Positions 14,905 through 52,682 of a stretch of 64,000 nt of DNA are shown piece after piece. A model generated the notes under the pieces. It was not told where the DNA came from and did not search any database. It saw only the letters and a list, made by a program, of their open reading frames with translations. The translations under genes and the position numbers were made by a program. The stretch lies in the IMG/VR virus record IMGVR_UViG_3300031760_000011; one strand, 5' to 3'. Position 1 is the stretch's first letter. The number at the start of each line of letters is the position of its first letter. This DNA comes from an uncultured virus (IMG/VR IMGVR_UViG_3300031760_000011). Lineage: Duplodnaviria; Heunggongvirae; Uroviricota; Caudoviricetes.

Positions 14905-14916
14905 AACATCTGGGTA
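14905..14916 (+). promoter_or_regulatory. AACA-N6-TA late-type promoter
   Basis: AACATCTGGGTA, overlapping the terminator stem. Confidence 0.7.
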
Positions 14917-14935
14917 GCTGGTTCTCCAGCTACCC
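14912..14935 (+). terminator. Intrinsic terminator
   Basis: GGGTAGCTGG/CCAGCTACCC then GTGTTTTATTTTTT. Confidence 0.8.
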
Positions 14936-14966
14936 GTGTTTTATTTTTTGTCGGGAGGTAATATAT

Positions 14967-17057: not shown

Positions 17058-18470
17058 CTAGTAATTTTTCTTGAGAATATAATCTTGTGTTACACTTAAC
17101 GCATATAGCAAGATAGGACCAATTCCGAAGAACTCATTGTCTGGAATTATATCAACGTCTTCAATGAAAGCTTCAGCATCACTTATTGAAACTTGGTACT
17201 TCTTGTTATTGATGAACTCAATCAACCAGTTGTACTTCAGATTCTCAAGCTTGTCGTGCTGCTTGTCATATTTAGTATTGAGACAAACCTTTTCAACAAA
17301 GTTCTCGGGATAAATATCCACGTATTTCTCAGAACGGTTCTCAGTATAGTCGATGTAATACATTCCGCGATAAATAAGGTTTCTTATTGAGTTGTATGTC
17401 TCGAAGTACAATACAGTCGGATACCGATTCTTAATCAGCGAAGGTTTACGCCGAATGACCGCGTTGTATATTGTATTGTGGAACGCATTATCGAAATTGT
17501 CATTGGTAGTCGGAGGCGTTACAGGATAAACCGTTAATCCTCTGTATACTAACGAATTTCTTAGCAAATTATTTTGGAGGAACTTGACGATATAAGGGTC
17601 GAAAACTTCTTTGTACTTCTCAGGAGGTTTATAACCTCCATAGATTACAGTGAGAGACAAATCTGATTCTTCTTTAATCTTCAGACGAATGATGTCTTTG
17701 GATTTATCATAGAACCTACGAAGATACTCTTCACTTACCAACTCGAAGCATTCTTTGAGTTTCACATAGGTATCATATACCTTCCTCTGCAATAGCACGG
17801 TGTTACCAGTACCAACTGCTTCAAAGTTGAAAACATAGTATTCCTGAACTCGATTTGTGAGATTCTCAGGAGACCCTTGGTCATAGTGCTTGATGAACTC
17901 AATCTTGAATCCAGTTTCTTCAAGAGAAGTAATTGGCTCAACAGAAGTTACTTTATAGCAAACCCGTTTGCCTATTTTCTCAGTCACATAGAAGAGGTCA
18001 CCAGGATATGGTCTGAATCCTGGAAAGAGCAAGCCAGTTGAAGTTATTTCATTCTTTGGCATACCCTCATCTACTGTATAACTTGAAGAAAGCTCAGAGT
18101 CAATATTGATAATGAGATTGTCGATGCGGTTGAACTTTGTATCATTTACACCGTCGATAGACGAAACGTTTACAGCATCTGTATCAACTTTCGGACTAAC
18201 CTGATTGAAATAAATAACCTCGGTTTTCGTACCGCTCAGATGCTTGATTGCTGGGGAACCTTGAATCTTGAATTGTGCGTTTTTAAGGTCTTGCAAAAGA
18301 CCAAGCTCTTTATCTATTGAAGAATCGGTATGCGGAATATCCGGTTTAGTTCCGGCTTCAATAACTTCGGTATTATTTCCAGATGCCGTTGATTCTGACG
18401 GCATTTTCGGAACCGAAATTGGGCGCTCCGAATCGGCAACAGGCAAAGAACCAATTTTCTTTATTGCCAT
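17058..18470 (-). CDS. Putative virion structural protein (neck/head-tail joining type)
   Basis: 470-aa ORF, VIYFNQ...RPYPGDLFYV...YKVTSV beta-rich pattern, late-type promoter. Confidence 0.5.
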   Translation of the reverse strand: MAIKKIGSLPVADSERPISVPKMPSESTASGNNTEVIEAGTKPDIPHTDSSIDKELGLLQDLKNAQFKIQGSPAIKHLSGTKTEVIYFNQVSPKVDTDAVNVSSIDGVNDTKFNRIDNLIINIDSELSSSYTVDEGMPKNEITSTGLLFPGFRPYPGDLFYVTEKIGKRVCYKVTSVEPITSLEETGFKIEFIKHYDQGSPENLTNRVQEYYVFNFEAVGTGNTVLLQRKVYDTYVKLKECFELVSEEYLRRFYDKSKDIIRLKIKEESDLSLTVIYGGYKPPEKYKEVFDPYIVKFLQNNLLRNSLVYRGLTVYPVTPPTTNDNFDNAFHNTIYNAVIRRKPSLIKNRYPTVLYFETYNSIRNLIYRGMYYIDYTENRSEKYVDIYPENFVEKVCLNTKYDKQHDKLENLKYNWLIEFINNKKYQVSISDAEAFIEDVDIIPDNEFFGIGPILLYALSVTQDYILKKNY

Positions 18471-18494
18471 ATACTACCGCCTTAATATTTCAGC

Positions 18495-18506
18495 TATTAC
18501 AGTGTT
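18495..18506 (-). promoter_or_regulatory. AACA-N6-TA late-type promoter
   Basis: AACACTGTAATA. Confidence 0.7.
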
Positions 18507-18511
18507 TTCAT

Positions 18512-18523
18512 AACAAAAACTTA
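18512..18523 (+). promoter_or_regulatory. AACA-N6-TA late-type promoter facing a non-coding region
   Basis: AACAAAAACTTA, divergent from the 18495 promoter. Confidence 0.55.
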
Positions 18524-18694
18524 ATCGTACGATAGCGTCAACGTTCGATTCTCGTGGCCGCTTTTGCTGTTTTCTGCAAAGTCTCCTCCTTTAGAGTGAC
18601 TAAAACGGATTCCGATGACGCTAGGATTTTGGTCACTAAATCCAATATAGGTTTATCTTGGTAATGCTTCCTGGCATATGCCAGGAAGCATTTT
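18523..18694 (+). ncRNA. Candidate structured small RNA with anti-SD tract and possible pseudoknot
   Basis: Promoter motif, no + strand ORF, stem 18595-18605/18627-18637, loop 18616-18623 complementary to 18533-18540, TCTCCTCCTTT, terminator with U-tract. Confidence 0.5.
18663..18692. terminator. Perfect palindromic bidirectional terminator
   Basis: AATGCTTCCTGGCATATGCCAGGAAGCATT. Confidence 0.85.
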
Positions 18695-18736
18695 ATCAAA
18701 ATAAACGTCTAGGCTGAGCTGCTGAAGACGCTCTCG

Positions 18737-19126
18737 CTATTCTTCCAACTGCGTCTTACGATTCTCCAGCAGCAATGTAATATTCGCCTCAAAAGTCGAT
18801 GCCATGACAAACCCTGATTTCTGAACGCTACCCTGCTTATCAGCAACGCCGGTACCGTATACAACTGTCGGCATTGACATGATTTGAAAATTGCCAAGCT
18901 TTTCAATCTGGTGGATTTCTGAACCTTCGTTGTCGAAATCTTCATCGGTCATAATGTAATGGAAAACGTCAACGTTTGCGAGTTTTTCGTTTCCATTCAT
19001 CCCGTCAATCATTGATGAGATGGCCGAGCACTGCGGACAACTTTCACGCCCAATGACAAGTACGAATGCTTTGTCACGATTGTCTTTGAAGAGAGGAACT
19101 AATTGTGTCTTAGAAAGTTCTTTCAT
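18737..19126 (-). CDS. Thioredoxin-fold protein
   Basis: CPQC motif after hydrophobic strand; cis-Pro-like SMPT. Confidence 0.8.
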   Translation of the reverse strand: MKELSKTQLVPLFKDNRDKAFVLVIGRESCPQCSAISSMIDGMNGNEKLANVDVFHYIMTDEDFDNEGSEIHQIEKLGNFQIMSMPTVVYGTGVADKQGSVQKSGFVMASTFEANITLLLENRKTQLEE

Positions 19127-20594: not shown

Positions 20595-20609
20595 ACGCTC
20601 CTCCTTTGA

Positions 20610-24903: not shown

Positions 24904-25500
24904 ATGTTCGATATTCTTGACAAAATCCTGACCTTTGAGGACGAGTCTAATCAACAAGCGGATAACGCTGACGGTTCCGATGCTGGAAAACTTGATTCTC
25001 AGTTGGAATCGTTGGCAAAAGAAACAGGCTCCGAAGATTCGAAAGATTCTGGCGGAGCAGAGGATACTGGTGGAAGCGGAGATGATTCATTGGATTCTGA
25101 TGGAGGAGATGACGGGTCGGACAATTCCGACGGACAACAGACCGACGACGATTCTTCAGAAGATGATGACGACTCAAAACCTAAAACCGGTGCGGCTCCG
25201 AGGAAGCTTACGCTTTATGCGGAGTTCAACAGAATACACAATGTCTTGAGAGAAGCTCTCGAATCTTGTGAGTCTAAGCTTGCGATAAACAACGCAACTA
25301 AAAATTGCATCGCCCAGTTGAAGCAGGTACTAATAGACACACGATTCATTCTGTCAAACTTCACTGAACGTAGTGAGGAAGATATCATGGTGCAGATGGA
25401 AATGATTAAACGTCGTTCTACGCTTGCCCTTGAACTTCTTAAGAGACAGGTAATGGAAACCAAGGAGAATAGGCAAAATGGCCGGATTTTCAGTAAATAA
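24904..25500 (+). CDS. Putative prohead scaffold/core protein
   Basis: LTFED motif, D/S/G-rich linker, helical C-terminus; immediately upstream of capsid. Confidence 0.5.
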   Translation: MFDILDKILTFEDESNQQADNADGSDAGKLDSQLESLAKETGSEDSKDSGGAEDTGGSGDDSLDSDGGDDGSDNSDGQQTDDDSSEDDDDSKPKTGAAPRKLTLYAEFNRIHNVLREALESCESKLAINNATKNCIAQLKQVLIDTRFILSNFTERSEEDIMVQMEMIKRRSTLALELLKRQVMETKENRQNGRIFSK

Positions 25501-27475
25501 CATCGCCACTCCGAACTATGAGATTCCGAAGCCTGTGAACCACCCTTTCAACGCTACTTTCGAAGCAGCTGTTGAGGATTTCGCAAGCAAAGGTTTCAAC
25601 ATCGCAGTTCCGGACGGCATGACAAGCGTGTTTGGAAACGGCACAGCTTTCGAGGATTACAAGGAAAATGTCATTCTCGACGGCGTGACCAACGAAGACG
25701 CACGCGAATCTATTTCATTGCTTTTGGACCGTGCAGCTGCAAAAATCGTCAACGACGGTGGGCAGGTGCAGATGGAAGACGGTAGTGTTGGTAACAGTAC
25801 AGTCTTTGCGTACCTCAATGGCCCGGTTATCCGCGCTGTGTGGGCACGCTGTATCATCCCGGCAGTTATGAAAGTCGTCGCCCTCAAGCAGCCTACGTAC
25901 ACATTGACATATGACTTGCAGTTCCTTGTGGACTCACAGGGCCAGCGTCACGACTTGCCGTACAGTCTCGTAGACGGCGACGGCACTGATGGCTACGTCA
26001 CTCCAATGCTTAGCCTCACTCCGCTCATCATGAAGAAGGGCGGTAACAAGTACATCGTTGAGAGGGACGGCGTTGTCCAGCTTATCAACGGCTCTGCAAA
26101 GGGTAACCTCATCGACGATTCTCTCGCAAACGCACGCAGTGCTTGGGACGGTCGTCATGTCGACGTAAACGCTAAAATCAAGAATGTCAAGTACATTGGC
26201 GAGAGCAGTGTTCCGAAGGATGGTGACGGTGCACAGGACCCTACAAAACACGTGCCTGGCGACCTCGTGACATTTGAGGGCGCTACAACGTTCGTGCAGA
26301 AACCTGGCGCAGCTGGTGAGATGATTGCTATCATCAATCTTCCAGATGCTTACGTGCATCATCACAACGAAAATAAAGTTGCTGCTTCTGAGAAAGATGC
26401 TGCTATTGCATACCTCAGAGCTCATGGACAGACTGTTGCTGACCCAACAGCGTTCGACATTCCTATCGCTGGTCTTGGTGAGGTTGCGGATGTTGACGAC
26501 AACTGGGCACTCGACGAAGGTGCAAGCATTGTGGTTATCCTCAACTGTAGCACTGGCGAGTGGAAAGCGATGTCTACATCTGTATCAATCGAGTCGTTCG
26601 AGTTCGAGGCTTACCTCAGCTCTGAAGATAACCGCGATGCAGCTCAGATGCTCACCGAGCAGGCGTCGTTGAACGTCAATATCGGTACTGGGCAGCACAT
26701 CATGATTGACACTCCCGTTGAGCTTTTGCAGGACTACGCTCCGTCTCATCAGGGTGCAGATTACACTGTCGCAATGACTGACATCGTGTCTGAGTTCTAC
26801 GCAGGTCACAAGAACTGCGAGTACCTCAACTTCATGCGCAACTCACTCCAGAATCCGGAGTCAAATGCGTACATCAGTCAGCAGGTTCTGCGCGGACTTA
26901 ACATCAAAGATGCGAAGTTCGATATCCGTGTCGCTCACGGCGAGAATCCGAAGTCATACGTCAACACGATGCTCAAGGACTGCGTGACCTATTGGGTAAA
27001 CGAAATCCGTGAAACTTCTCGTATTGAAGATGGCTTCTGGAGCATCGTTGGTAAAGCGAACAACGTTCGCTTGCTCAAAGACTTCATCACAGAGTCATAT
27101 GAGCAGCTCAACGCAGACAGCGACGCAGAGCGCAAAGACGTTCTCGGTTTCAAAGTTGGATACACATTCGGCTTCATGACCAACGGTTTGAACGCTCCTT
27201 GCAAAGCTTTGTACACGCCTGAGATGCGTCAGCGTAAGGATTTGGTTATTGCGTTTACGTCAACCGACCCGAAACGTCCGACATACATCTACCATCCGTA
27301 CAGCTTCGTGATTGCACGTAGCTACCAGAACAAGCGCACAGATGCGTTGGTTCCGTCGCTGATGGTAATGAAGCGCGACCTCTTCAAGGAGTTCGTGCCT
27401 TCTCAGATTAAACTGGAAATCGCTGGAAACGACGGTAACCAGTTTAGAAATGGTGGTGCTGTCCTTGGGGCATAA
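25478..27475 (+). CDS. Probable major capsid protein
   Basis: 665 aa; TFE/QME propeptide sites followed by PVIRAVWARCIIPAVMKVVALKQP; biased, high-expression-looking codons; two terminators downstream. Confidence 0.75.
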   Translation: MAGFSVNNIATPNYEIPKPVNHPFNATFEAAVEDFASKGFNIAVPDGMTSVFGNGTAFEDYKENVILDGVTNEDARESISLLLDRAAAKIVNDGGQVQMEDGSVGNSTVFAYLNGPVIRAVWARCIIPAVMKVVALKQPTYTLTYDLQFLVDSQGQRHDLPYSLVDGDGTDGYVTPMLSLTPLIMKKGGNKYIVERDGVVQLINGSAKGNLIDDSLANARSAWDGRHVDVNAKIKNVKYIGESSVPKDGDGAQDPTKHVPGDLVTFEGATTFVQKPGAAGEMIAIINLPDAYVHHHNENKVAASEKDAAIAYLRAHGQTVADPTAFDIPIAGLGEVADVDDNWALDEGASIVVILNCSTGEWKAMSTSVSIESFEFEAYLSSEDNRDAAQMLTEQASLNVNIGTGQHIMIDTPVELLQDYAPSHQGADYTVAMTDIVSEFYAGHKNCEYLNFMRNSLQNPESNAYISQQVLRGLNIKDAKFDIRVAHGENPKSYVNTMLKDCVTYWVNEIRETSRIEDGFWSIVGKANNVRLLKDFITESYEQLNADSDAERKDVLGFKVGYTFGFMTNGLNAPCKALYTPEMRQRKDLVIAFTSTDPKRPTYIYHPYSFVIARSYQNKRTDALVPSLMVMKRDLFKEFVPSQIKLEIAGNDGNQFRNGGAVLGA

Positions 27476-27514
27476 CCTCATAGCAGCTTAAAGGCTGCAA
27501 ATGTAGTAACTAAT

Positions 27515-27542
27515 AGTCGCTGGGGTTAATTCCCCAGCGACT
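27515..27542 (+). terminator. Terminator 1 after capsid gene
   Basis: AGTCGCTGGGG/CCCCAGCGACT. Confidence 0.8.
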
Positions 27543-27605
27543 TTCCTTTCATTTTATCTGACATTTTGACGCTTTGCCATAGCAAGGCTCCAGTATAGAT
27601 TAAGT

Positions 27606-37124: not shown

Positions 37125-37137
37125 GGCATTTTTGACA

Positions 37138-37310
37138 AAAAATAACGTTCACGACGTTTTCAAGCGAAAAGTTACCAGGTGGTAACCCACCTGGTTTTAG
37201 GAGTATTACCAATGTGCTCAAACCATCAGAAACTCGTGCGATTAAGTTAGGAGACCAGAATCGCACGATGTTGATTAGTCGTCGGTAAACTATCAACTCG
37301 CTTCGTCGTC
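37138..37310 (-). ncRNA. Candidate multi-stem small RNA
   Basis: AACA-N6-TG promoter puts +1 at 37310, the 5' end of a closing stem; three internal hairpins; ends in TTATTTTTT. Confidence 0.6.
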
Positions 37311-40331: not shown

Positions 40332-40727
40332 TTAGGCAGTCTTGCCTTTCTTCGCAGCTTCTTTCTTGTCAGCAGAGTCCTTCTTGATTTTACCGAGGAC
40401 GTCTGCGTTCAACGCGGTTTTCACTGAGTTGGAAATCTTGAACATCGGAACGTTGTGCTCCGGAATGGTGTACTCACCACCGCCGTTCAGATTGTTTTTG
40501 CGTGTAACCGCCGGCTGTCGTTTGACAGCGAATGCGCCGAGCCCAGGAACAGGAACTGCACCTGAGATTTCGCCGGGTTTCTTCGGGAGATGAGCCAAGA
40601 GCTCGCCGATGACAACCTTGGGGATTGCATCGACTGCATTTGACGCACTTGCCTTTGTCTCACCTGAGACATCTGCTACTTTAGCGATAAACTCATCTTT
40701 GCTCAAAAGAGCGTCTACCTTTGCCAT
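40332..40727 (-). CDS. hup: HU/IHF-family histone-like DNA-binding protein
   Basis: LSKDEFIAKVA..., VPGLGAFAVKRQPA..RKN...TIPEHNVPMFKIS; lysine-rich tail. Confidence 0.88.
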   Translation of the reverse strand: MAKVDALLSKDEFIAKVADVSGETKASASNAVDAIPKVVIGELLAHLPKKPGEISGAVPVPGLGAFAVKRQPAVTRKNNLNGGGEYTIPEHNVPMFKISNSVKTALNADVLGKIKKDSADKKEAAKKGKTA

Positions 40728-40760
40728 AATTCTGGCCTCCTATATAGGGAATCTACTGGT

Positions 40761-40813: not shown

Positions 40814-40867
40814 GATTCTGGCGAATTAAGTCTTTGTTATGTGCTGAAATCAGAACTTACAGTGACA

Positions 40868-51464: not shown

Positions 51465-52628
51465 CTATCCTCTCAACGATTCAACTTCATCGAAGAGATT
51501 ATCGAATCCTTCGTCTTTCTTTGAATCTTTCGGTTGAGCTTTCGGTCCAGTAGACCAGTTGCTCATCAGTGCAGAGTTCGCAGTCGACTTTTCATCTTTG
51601 ATTGTGTCTTCTGTAAACTCTTCGGTGAGTGCTTCACGTTCACTCATGTCAGAAGCGTTCAAGTGCGCACCTGATACTGCTACCAAAATGCGACTGAACT
51701 CTTCTGTTTCTTCGCCTTCACCCTTGACTTCATCCGGTGCATAATAACCTTCGAAAAGACCAGCTGCATTGCGGAAGACAGAGCGGATGTCGTTGCGTGT
51801 TTTGTCAGTGCAGTATTTCGGATTGATTTCGAACTGAACTGCGACTTTCTTAACAGGCTTGGTAAGGTCTGCGATTACCGGTGTCTGAGTAATTGCCATT
51901 TTTACAGCGGTCTTGACGACGTTTTCAGCATCAGTATCAACCACAGCAGAACCAACAACGAGCAAACCAGCATCATCAAACATAGACAAGCGGTCGGCTG
52001 CGTCGATATTGCTAATGCGGCTAACCTTTCCGAACTTCACCAAGCTCTTGAGGTTCTGACAGATTTCGCCGTTGACATCATCGTACTTTTCAAGCACGCT
52101 TGCACCAACAGCCTTTGAGTTGTCAACCGTAATCATACAGAATCCAGCATCAATGAGCTCGTTGATACAAGCGATTGCGTTTGCCTGCACGATACCAAAC
52201 TCTTCTTTTCCCGGCATGACTATTACCGGAACGATACGAACTTCAGGATACTTCTTGCGAAGAATGCGAGCGACAATCGGAATGGTTCCCGAACCGGTAC
52301 CGCCACCAGCTGAAGCCGCGATGAAGATAACATCGGTTTCTTTACCGAGAGGAGTCTGCATAACTTTCTCATCATAGTCAGCAATGACATCTGCGTACTC
52401 TTTCTTGAAACCAGCAAGTGCAACGTTTCTGTCTTTTGCGGCTCCCTGAATGTACTTCAGCTTACGCTTGAAGTCTTTGTCGATAATGCGGAGAGCCTCA
52501 AGGTCGTCGTATGACGAATTGATGACATAAACAGTGTCTGACAAACCGTCAGCTACTGACGTCTCTGCGATGTTTGAACCGCAAGCTCCCAACCCGATGA
52601 AACCAATGACTAACTTACCGTCTTTCAT
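51465..52628 (-). CDS. Tubulin/FtsZ-family GTPase (PhuZ/TubZ-like)
   Basis: IGLGACGSNI, GAAKDR, ASAGGGTGSG signature, VDN, T7-loop-like SNIDAAD; start MKDGK at 52628 with GGAGG. Confidence 0.93.
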   Translation of the reverse strand: MKDGKLVIGFIGLGACGSNIAETSVADGLSDTVYVINSSYDDLEALRIIDKDFKRKLKYIQGAAKDRNVALAGFKKEYADVIADYDEKVMQTPLGKETDVIFIAASAGGGTGSGTIPIVARILRKKYPEVRIVPVIVMPGKEEFGIVQANAIACINELIDAGFCMITVDNSKAVGASVLEKYDDVNGEICQNLKSLVKFGKVSRISNIDAADRLSMFDDAGLLVVGSAVVDTDAENVVKTAVKMAITQTPVIADLTKPVKKVAVQFEINPKYCTDKTRNDIRSVFRNAAGLFEGYYAPDEVKGEGEETEEFSRILVAVSGAHLNASDMSEREALTEEFTEDTIKDEKSTANSALMSNWSTGPKAQPKDSKKDEGFDNLFDEVESLRG

Positions 52629-52672
52629 GGTATTCCTCCATAAATATGAATATTGTGTTTCTACACAGTTCA

Positions 52673-52682
52673 ATCATGTATA
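52673..52682 (-). promoter_or_regulatory. Putative early/middle promoter motif TATACATGAT
   Basis: Upstream of tubulin. Confidence 0.55.

Follow-up and report, generated by a model that had tools for sequence, protein, structure and literature searches.

The stretch of DNA analyzed here (the window) comprises 64,000 nucleotides of an uncultured virus, and at positions 18,512 to 18,694 it raises the question whether an intergenic gap with a late promoter and no plus-strand gene encodes an RNA and, if so, which messages this RNA acts on. The earlier note on this DNA had proposed a non-coding RNA made from the late promoter and occluding ribosome-binding sites (RBSs). Part of this proposal stands, as the promoter, the terminator and the anti-Shine-Dalgarno (anti-SD) tract are kept in syntenic relatives; the neck gene is not a conserved target, the 13-amino-acid ORF is not conserved, and the pseudoknot has no support outside the window phage. 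Two elements absent from that note, a conserved 5' arm and an HU-like gene as the likely target, emerged from the present analysis.

The window is a piece of a jumbo phage, as shown by PHROGs matches to virion proteins, a head protease, a major head protein, a terminase, a topoisomerase and a DNA polymerase. Among cultured phages, the nearest capsid proteins are those of AR9, PBS1, LPJP1 and staphylococcal jumbo phages (21-25% identity). The phage is an AR9-like rumen jumbo phage, related to Bacillus phage AR9; among the runs with a recorded source, those containing its DNA come mostly from cattle or sheep gut. From the clade and the SD usage we infer a host from Bacillota. The capsid region (24904-27560) lies under long contigs in all four rumen RNA runs, which fits phage presence, DNA carry-over being possible, and a tubulin/FtsZ-family gene at 51465-52673 on the minus strand (Pfam PF00091) is a candidate PhuZ-like gene.

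In the accessible part of the AR9 study, the late consensus is AACA-(6N)-TA/G, transcription starts at its last A or G, and the motif precedes late genes (PMC5312081). The motif at 18512 agrees with this AR9-type consensus. Exact AACA-N6-TA occurs 11 times on the plus and 19 times on the minus strand of the window, many of the copies being immediately 5' of genes. Other close opposite-strand pairs lie between divergent genes (10903/10946, 21468/21479, 34005/34041 and 59090/59112); unlike them, the pair 18506/18512 has one side without a protein gene. Elsewhere, a late promoter motif at 14905-14940 (+) overlaps a terminator-like hairpin directly upstream of gene 14967, and at 37134-37200 (+) a GACA-N6-TA sequence (one mismatch) is found about 30 nt 5' of a strong hairpin with a U-run. 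The latter, the 37138 element, had been put forward as part of a late-sRNA system, a suggestion that is not supported, as there is no exact AACA-N6-TA at 37138; the element could be just the terminator of the converging primase gene. The features of the locus are the following.

18495..18506, minus strand: late promoter, back-to-back with the next one, serving the adjacent gene for a head-tail joining / virion protein (gene family PF24214, phrog_3013)
18512..18523, plus strand: late promoter AACA-N6-TA, exact motif; the AR9 rule puts the predicted start at its last A (18523)
18523..18694, plus strand: predicted small RNA of ~172 nt, a promoter-to-terminator unit in the intergenic gap
18533-18540 with 18616-18623, plus strand: possible 8-bp pseudoknot or kissing helix, window phage only
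18553..18576, plus strand: arm 1, UGCU/U-rich; its complement in the HU-like mRNA spans spacer, start codon and first codons; motif in 4/4 full units
18581..18592, plus strand: arm 2, anti-SD tract; CUCCUU in 4/4 full units
18595..18637, plus strand: scaffold, an 11-bp stem immediately 3' of the anti-SD tract (strands 18595-18605/18627-18637)
18645..18659, plus strand: arm 3, with the UAGGUUUAU motif common to L001/L003; its complement is in the HU leader, immediately 5' of the SD
18663..18694, plus strand: terminator hairpin with a short U-run; L001, L003 and L018 have corresponding hairpins, their U-runs being on the RNA strand

The promoter motif at 18512-18523 (+) is as previously described in both sequence and coordinates, and the same is true of the complementarity of the 8-mers 18533-18540 and 18616-18623, the identity of 10 nt of the tract 18582-18592 to 20598-20607, and the G-U pair that the 11-bp stem forms on the plus strand only. 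The terminator had been called perfect, with a U-tract: the hairpin at 18663-18694 is present, but its U-run has just four U and it is unlisted by the terminator scan. The converging thioredoxin-like transcript probably stops at this hairpin too.

Alignment of the neighbouring virion protein identified three metagenome loci (L001, L002 and L003; 46-47% identity), and alignment of the protease identified a 268-kb record (L018/G001), whose neighbouring virion protein is 37% identical. The gene order of the window is retained in L001 and L003; L018 is without the thioredoxin-like gene, which is replaced in G001 (L018 14720-14880) by an acidic ORF of ~49 codons with a strong SD, the small-RNA unit being still there. 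L002 contains the promoter end only, and the full gap was compared in L001, L003 and L018. Close relatives were found neither in viral_contigs, using single proteins or the stem pattern, nor in genome_contigs, and GenBank phages gave chance matches only. Fourteen motif-pattern matches from viral_contigs (L004-L017) were dropped, none of the 14 having promoter or flank homology.

An exact AACA-N6-TA pointing away from the virion gene is present at the syntenic site in all four relatives (L001, L002, L003 and L018), and the full gap ends in a hairpin with a U-run in all three in which it could be compared. The syntenic units are about 250 nt long in L001 and L003 and 180 nt in L018. UGCU(U/G)UU, CUCCUU and UUCCG follow each other in this order in all four full units, window included; the first two motifs appeared in order in 6-14 of 10,000 shuffles per unit, for motifs picked post hoc and relaxed for L018. 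A promoter followed by both motifs was found for one of the 30 promoter motifs in the window and one of the 211 in G001, and each time it was the syntenic one. The UAGGUUUAU 9-mer was not found in L018.

L001 and L003 have five helices in common, in which 24 of 24 chosen pairs are kept, one via a double change; this count comes from two sequences from which the structure itself was derived, one helix of differing register being omitted. Where the window has its 11-bp stem, they have a 10-bp stem of other sequence. Their RNA strands fold with z of -3.31 (L001) and -2.0 (L003), versus -1.48 and -0.8 for the opposite strands, and in both loci a U-run directly 3' of the hairpin is present on the RNA strand only. 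An HMM and a covariance model (CM) built from these two loci were run on the window, G001 and L018 and identified no significant unit, and the putative homology of the units rests on synteny and on short motifs chosen after sight of the sequences.

For the predicted RNA of the window the folding z is -3.84, because of the terminator hairpin; the core alone has z of -0.7 on the plus strand, and on the minus strand the core has -1.57 and the whole -5.61. Both crossing helices were matched in 24 of 1000 shuffles and the best helix alone in 93 of 1000, which makes the combination of the two only moderately unusual. Since they cross, the nested minimum-free-energy (MFE) structure forms just one of the two. 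For the possible pseudoknot proposed earlier we found no clear counterpart in the helix lists of the relatives, and a helix of a single phage gives no covariation. The anti-SD tract is mostly unpaired in the nested folds of L001 and L003, partly paired in that of the window and largely paired in the L018 MFE.

Rfam 15 covariance models gave 0 hits at the gathering threshold in the whole window; six hits at E<=10 near the element all scored well short of gathering, most of them falling on the terminator, and three weak hits in L001/L003 were all outside the RNA core. The gathering score was not reached for RsaE/RoxS, c4, 6S, tmRNA, SRP or any other Rfam 15 family, and a tRNA/tmRNA search of the window found none. 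The comparison covered contigs of four of the six RNA runs, all unstranded; among those listed, the X19 contig 18235-18556 spans both promoters. In X19 and X20 there is no contig over the RNA core, because the full depth of bin 18264-18927 is made up by the listed contigs, those listed for X15 and X16 being a subset (RNAs shorter than 200 nt are often lost).

These observations can be set against the reading that there is no discrete plus-strand RNA, the gap combining a divergent promoter region with a shared terminator and the motifs being remnants or minus-strand read-through. Such an arrangement would agree with a core whose fold does not surpass that of shuffles, both in the window and in L018, with the absence of profile-level homology and with an unstranded X19 contig across both promoters. 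It leaves unexplained why an exact promoter without a gene to drive is kept in five of five loci, and why in L001/L003 the U-run after the hairpin and the better fold belong to the RNA strand only and 24/24 chosen pairs hold. We consider this reading quite unlikely; conservation and layout suggest that 18523-18694 is very likely a real RNA gene.

The minus strand of the same gap offers another interpretation. The earlier note had pointed to a small ORF as the antisense partner of the RNA:

18579-18538, minus strand: 13-codon TTG ORF, probably incidental, a mirror image of the antisense arms

The ORF is present where it had been placed, with 13 codons in the window, but its role as a partner is not borne out by conservation: the corresponding ORFs have 4-6 codons in L001/L003 and 34 in L018, and the peptides are unrelated. 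A small RNA acting in cis on such a mini-ORF, read through from the thioredoxin side, would account for a strong SD and a start codon on the minus strand in 4/4 units, and it would fit the window hairpin, almost without a U-run on the minus side, and the X19 contig crossing the region. The peptides differ in both length (4-34 codons) and sequence, and the antisense copy of any translation start necessarily resembles an SD plus start codon on the opposite strand, which makes the cis interpretation very unlikely. No conserved small hydrophobic peptide, as in a type I toxin-antitoxin-like cis pair, was found opposite the RNA among the four full units. We take the mini-ORFs as the probable mirror image of the antisense seed. 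The unit has its own promoter and terminator and no conserved ORF, as would be expected of a trans-acting anti-RBS sRNA.

Host toxins that cleave the anti-SD exist. Mimicry of the 16S 3' end had been suggested as an alternative function, and a decoy resembling the 16S rRNA 3' tail could soak up a protein, for example such a toxin. The conservation of the tract, and its position after a hairpin in the window, L001 and L003, would suit a decoy; beyond the tract itself we found nothing in support of mimicry, Rfam gave no rRNA-like match, and the conserved arm 1 with its HU match would be left unexplained. A decoy is highly improbable.

The messages with which the predicted sRNA might pair were screened in 64 kb of the phage (51 genes) and in G001, using gene starts from a crude caller. 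The gene that stood out, and its relevant elements, are as follows.

40332..40727, minus strand: gene for an HU-like DNA-binding protein, predicted target (Pfam PF00216, E 3e-11)
40711..40752, minus strand: region of the HU mRNA predicted to pair in computed duplexes; it takes in leader, SD, spacer and codons 1-6
40827..40838, minus strand: late promoter of the HU gene, 11/12 letters identical to the sRNA promoter; the TACATAAT motif is also in the leader

An HU ortholog with 43-44% identity is encoded at 205144 in G001; beyond the HU gene of the window, it was the only one found in the clade, plus distant ones. The motif TACATAAT/TACATTAT, a candidate early or middle promoter, precedes six of the 51 window genes (starts 5728, 10830, 33953, 40727, 48567 and 62911), including those for topoisomerase, DNA polymerase and HU.

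HU was first picked out with the seeds of the window and L018, ahead of the L001/L003 test: in the first scoring of seeds against start regions it ranked 2/51 in the window, and its ortholog 4/258 in G001. With longer seeds HU ranked 1/51 for the window RNA, 1/51 and 1/246 for L001, 1/51 and 10/246 for L003, and 4/51 and 7/246 for L018; with the anti-SD removed, it was first of the 51 window genes for all four arms. The invariant arm of L001/L003 forms 15 bp, with one bulge, with codons 2-6 of the window HU gene. Shuffles of the L001 arm were as good on HU in 0/400 cases and on any gene in 2/400, and among 15,992 windows on both strands the best site of the L001/L003 arm is the HU start codon. 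When columns were permuted jointly over 39 ortholog pairs, HU had z of -12.0, reached in 0/1503 permutations, and the next gene had -2.8. A seed that is conserved and complementary to a start region encoded elsewhere was therefore found, the HU signal stemming mainly from the arm of the relatives L001/L003.

With HU mRNA, the window RNA itself can form 7 bp at the SD, 5 bp at the spacer and 11 bp over the start codon and codons 2-4, and arm 3 can add 11 pairs just upstream (rank 1/51; 1/500 shuffles as good). The arm 3 match does not carry over to L001/L003, whose versions rank HU just 18/51 and 10/51, or to G001. As an alternative binding register, 18619-18638 (the 3' strand of the 11-bp stem plus the loop) scores -19 kcal/mol against the HU start, rank 1/51, this being one of 26 tiles.

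Several results weaken the assignment. Taken alone, the two cognate RNA-genome pairs are not significant (13/150 shuffles; some gene as good in 345/1503 permutations), and neither is the HU match of the window's own RNA. Among collapsed window sites, the HU site is 154th for the window arm and 326th for the L018 arm. Unbiased tiling of the window RNA placed HU 3/51, some gene being as good in 94% of 260 shuffles, and full-length cofolding placed it 5, 14, 7 and 2 of 51. HU is also compositionally sticky, being the top gene in 386/1503 permutations (26%). The strongest predicted match is a cross-species one, between the L001/L003 arm and the HU gene of the window phage. The neck gene, previously named as the RBS target, outscores HU with a shorter seed (-28.4 versus -26.9) and ranks 2/51 in the window, yet its ortholog is 191/246 in G001, and it is not a conserved target. 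In G001, the orphan gene 150389 has a good seed match; a homolog search found it alone, with none in the window. The possibility that UGUU loops mimic a promoter template strand was rejected, inspection showing that the window RNA is without the pattern.

The RNA could be real and act broadly against initiation on many host and phage mRNAs whose SD is strong and whose first codons are A-rich, HU being one of many. The L018 seed is a mirror of a generic SD-spacer-ATG-AAA-AAA start and has partial matches to several G001 genes, start regions outpair internal windows, and, in excerpts of PMC6158497, the C-rich motifs of RsaE/RoxS target many mRNAs. A broad action agrees poorly with the wide separation of HU from the other 38 ortholog pairs and with the L001/L003 arm, which is a long, specific match. 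Nor do late-promoter genes pair less in G001 (58 vs 171 genes, P 0.45), and in the window they do so marginally (14 vs 34, P 0.06); an escape of late genes from pairing was rejected as unsupported. A broad sRNA is unlikely; the HU-like gene is the probable main target.

We thus read the locus, with some confidence, as a stand-alone trans-acting antisense sRNA that would be made late, pair with the start of the HU mRNA and probably brake synthesis of the phage nucleoid protein. The phage's own non-virion RNA polymerase would make the RNA late in infection. Arm 1 would then pair with the HU start codon and codons 1-6 and the anti-SD tract with the RBS, and the third arm, in the window phage, would bind just upstream of the HU SD. 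By analogy with RsaE/RoxS, an RNA lying over the SD and the first codons would keep 30S subunits from loading, so that late in infection HU synthesis would be capped or lowered. Since the late promoter of HU is nearly identical to that of the RNA and its TACATAAT motif is shared with replication genes, the RNA would cap HU output while synthesis of the message continues. The purpose of the brake, we speculate, may be less coating of the DNA at packaging.

A more general model is tentative and on balance doubtful. In AR9-like jumbo phages, sRNAs timed by the phage polymerase may serve as a developmental switch, the RNA of the window clamping ~35-40 nt at and about the HU start by means of three arms that a kissing-loop scaffold keeps apart; the phage would turn off its own nucleoid protein and hand its genome from replication to packaging, and between lineages the seed would be kept and the scaffold rebuilt.

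Our literature search found no description of this RNA; supplements (including the table of 38 phage sRNAs of PMC12197685 and the AR9 promoter tables) and subscription journals were outside its scope. The predicted trans-acting anti-RBS small RNA appears to be new; it is outside any Rfam family and would work like C-rich anti-SD sRNAs and like c4/sar. According to the consulted part of PMC12197685, targets are known for few phage small RNAs, and the locus supplies, for an uncultured jumbo-phage clade, a named candidate pair of a late RNA and a phage HU-like mRNA with an exact pairing to mutate. If true, this would be RNA-level timing of a viral nucleoid protein, and a case in which profile searches no longer recognize a diverged fold although seed and promoter are retained. 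Phage HU-like proteins are known, an example being TF1 of SPO1 (excerpt of PMC6606824).

In Internexus, an AR9-like phage, the position most comparable to the locus is occupied by a protein gene, and the promoter-plus-arm pattern has no match. The late antisense transcripts of AR9 are similar in being non-coding transcription from AACA-(6N)-TA/G promoters; as far as the available text of PMC5312081 describes them, they overlap genes in cis, whereas the RNA predicted here is intergenic. phiKZ and 201phi2-1 also have short structured jumbo-phage RNAs, some conserved in position; those highlighted in the sections of PMC8545117 and PMC11512511 at hand are mostly UTR-derived and without an assigned target, whereas the predicted RNA of the window has its own promoter, its own terminator and a predicted target. 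RsaE of S. aureus and RoxS of B. subtilis resemble it in mechanism, as a C-rich single-stranded motif pairs with the SD, with extra adjoining pairing, and halts initiation (PMC6158497, in part). The predicted RNA of the window differs from them in being phage-encoded, in having a phage late promoter and a predicted phage target, and in the lack of an Rfam match to these families. Finally, c4 of P1/P7, sar of P22 and PAK_P4as15 are, like the predicted RNA, phage RNAs blocking translation of a phage mRNA; according to the portion of PMC12197685 that treats them, antirepressors of temperate phages are under the control of c4 and sar, and PAK_P4as15 is linked to the endolysin gene of its phage, whereas the RNA described here is predicted to act, over a distance of 22 kb, on the gene for a nucleoid protein of an AR9-like jumbo phage.
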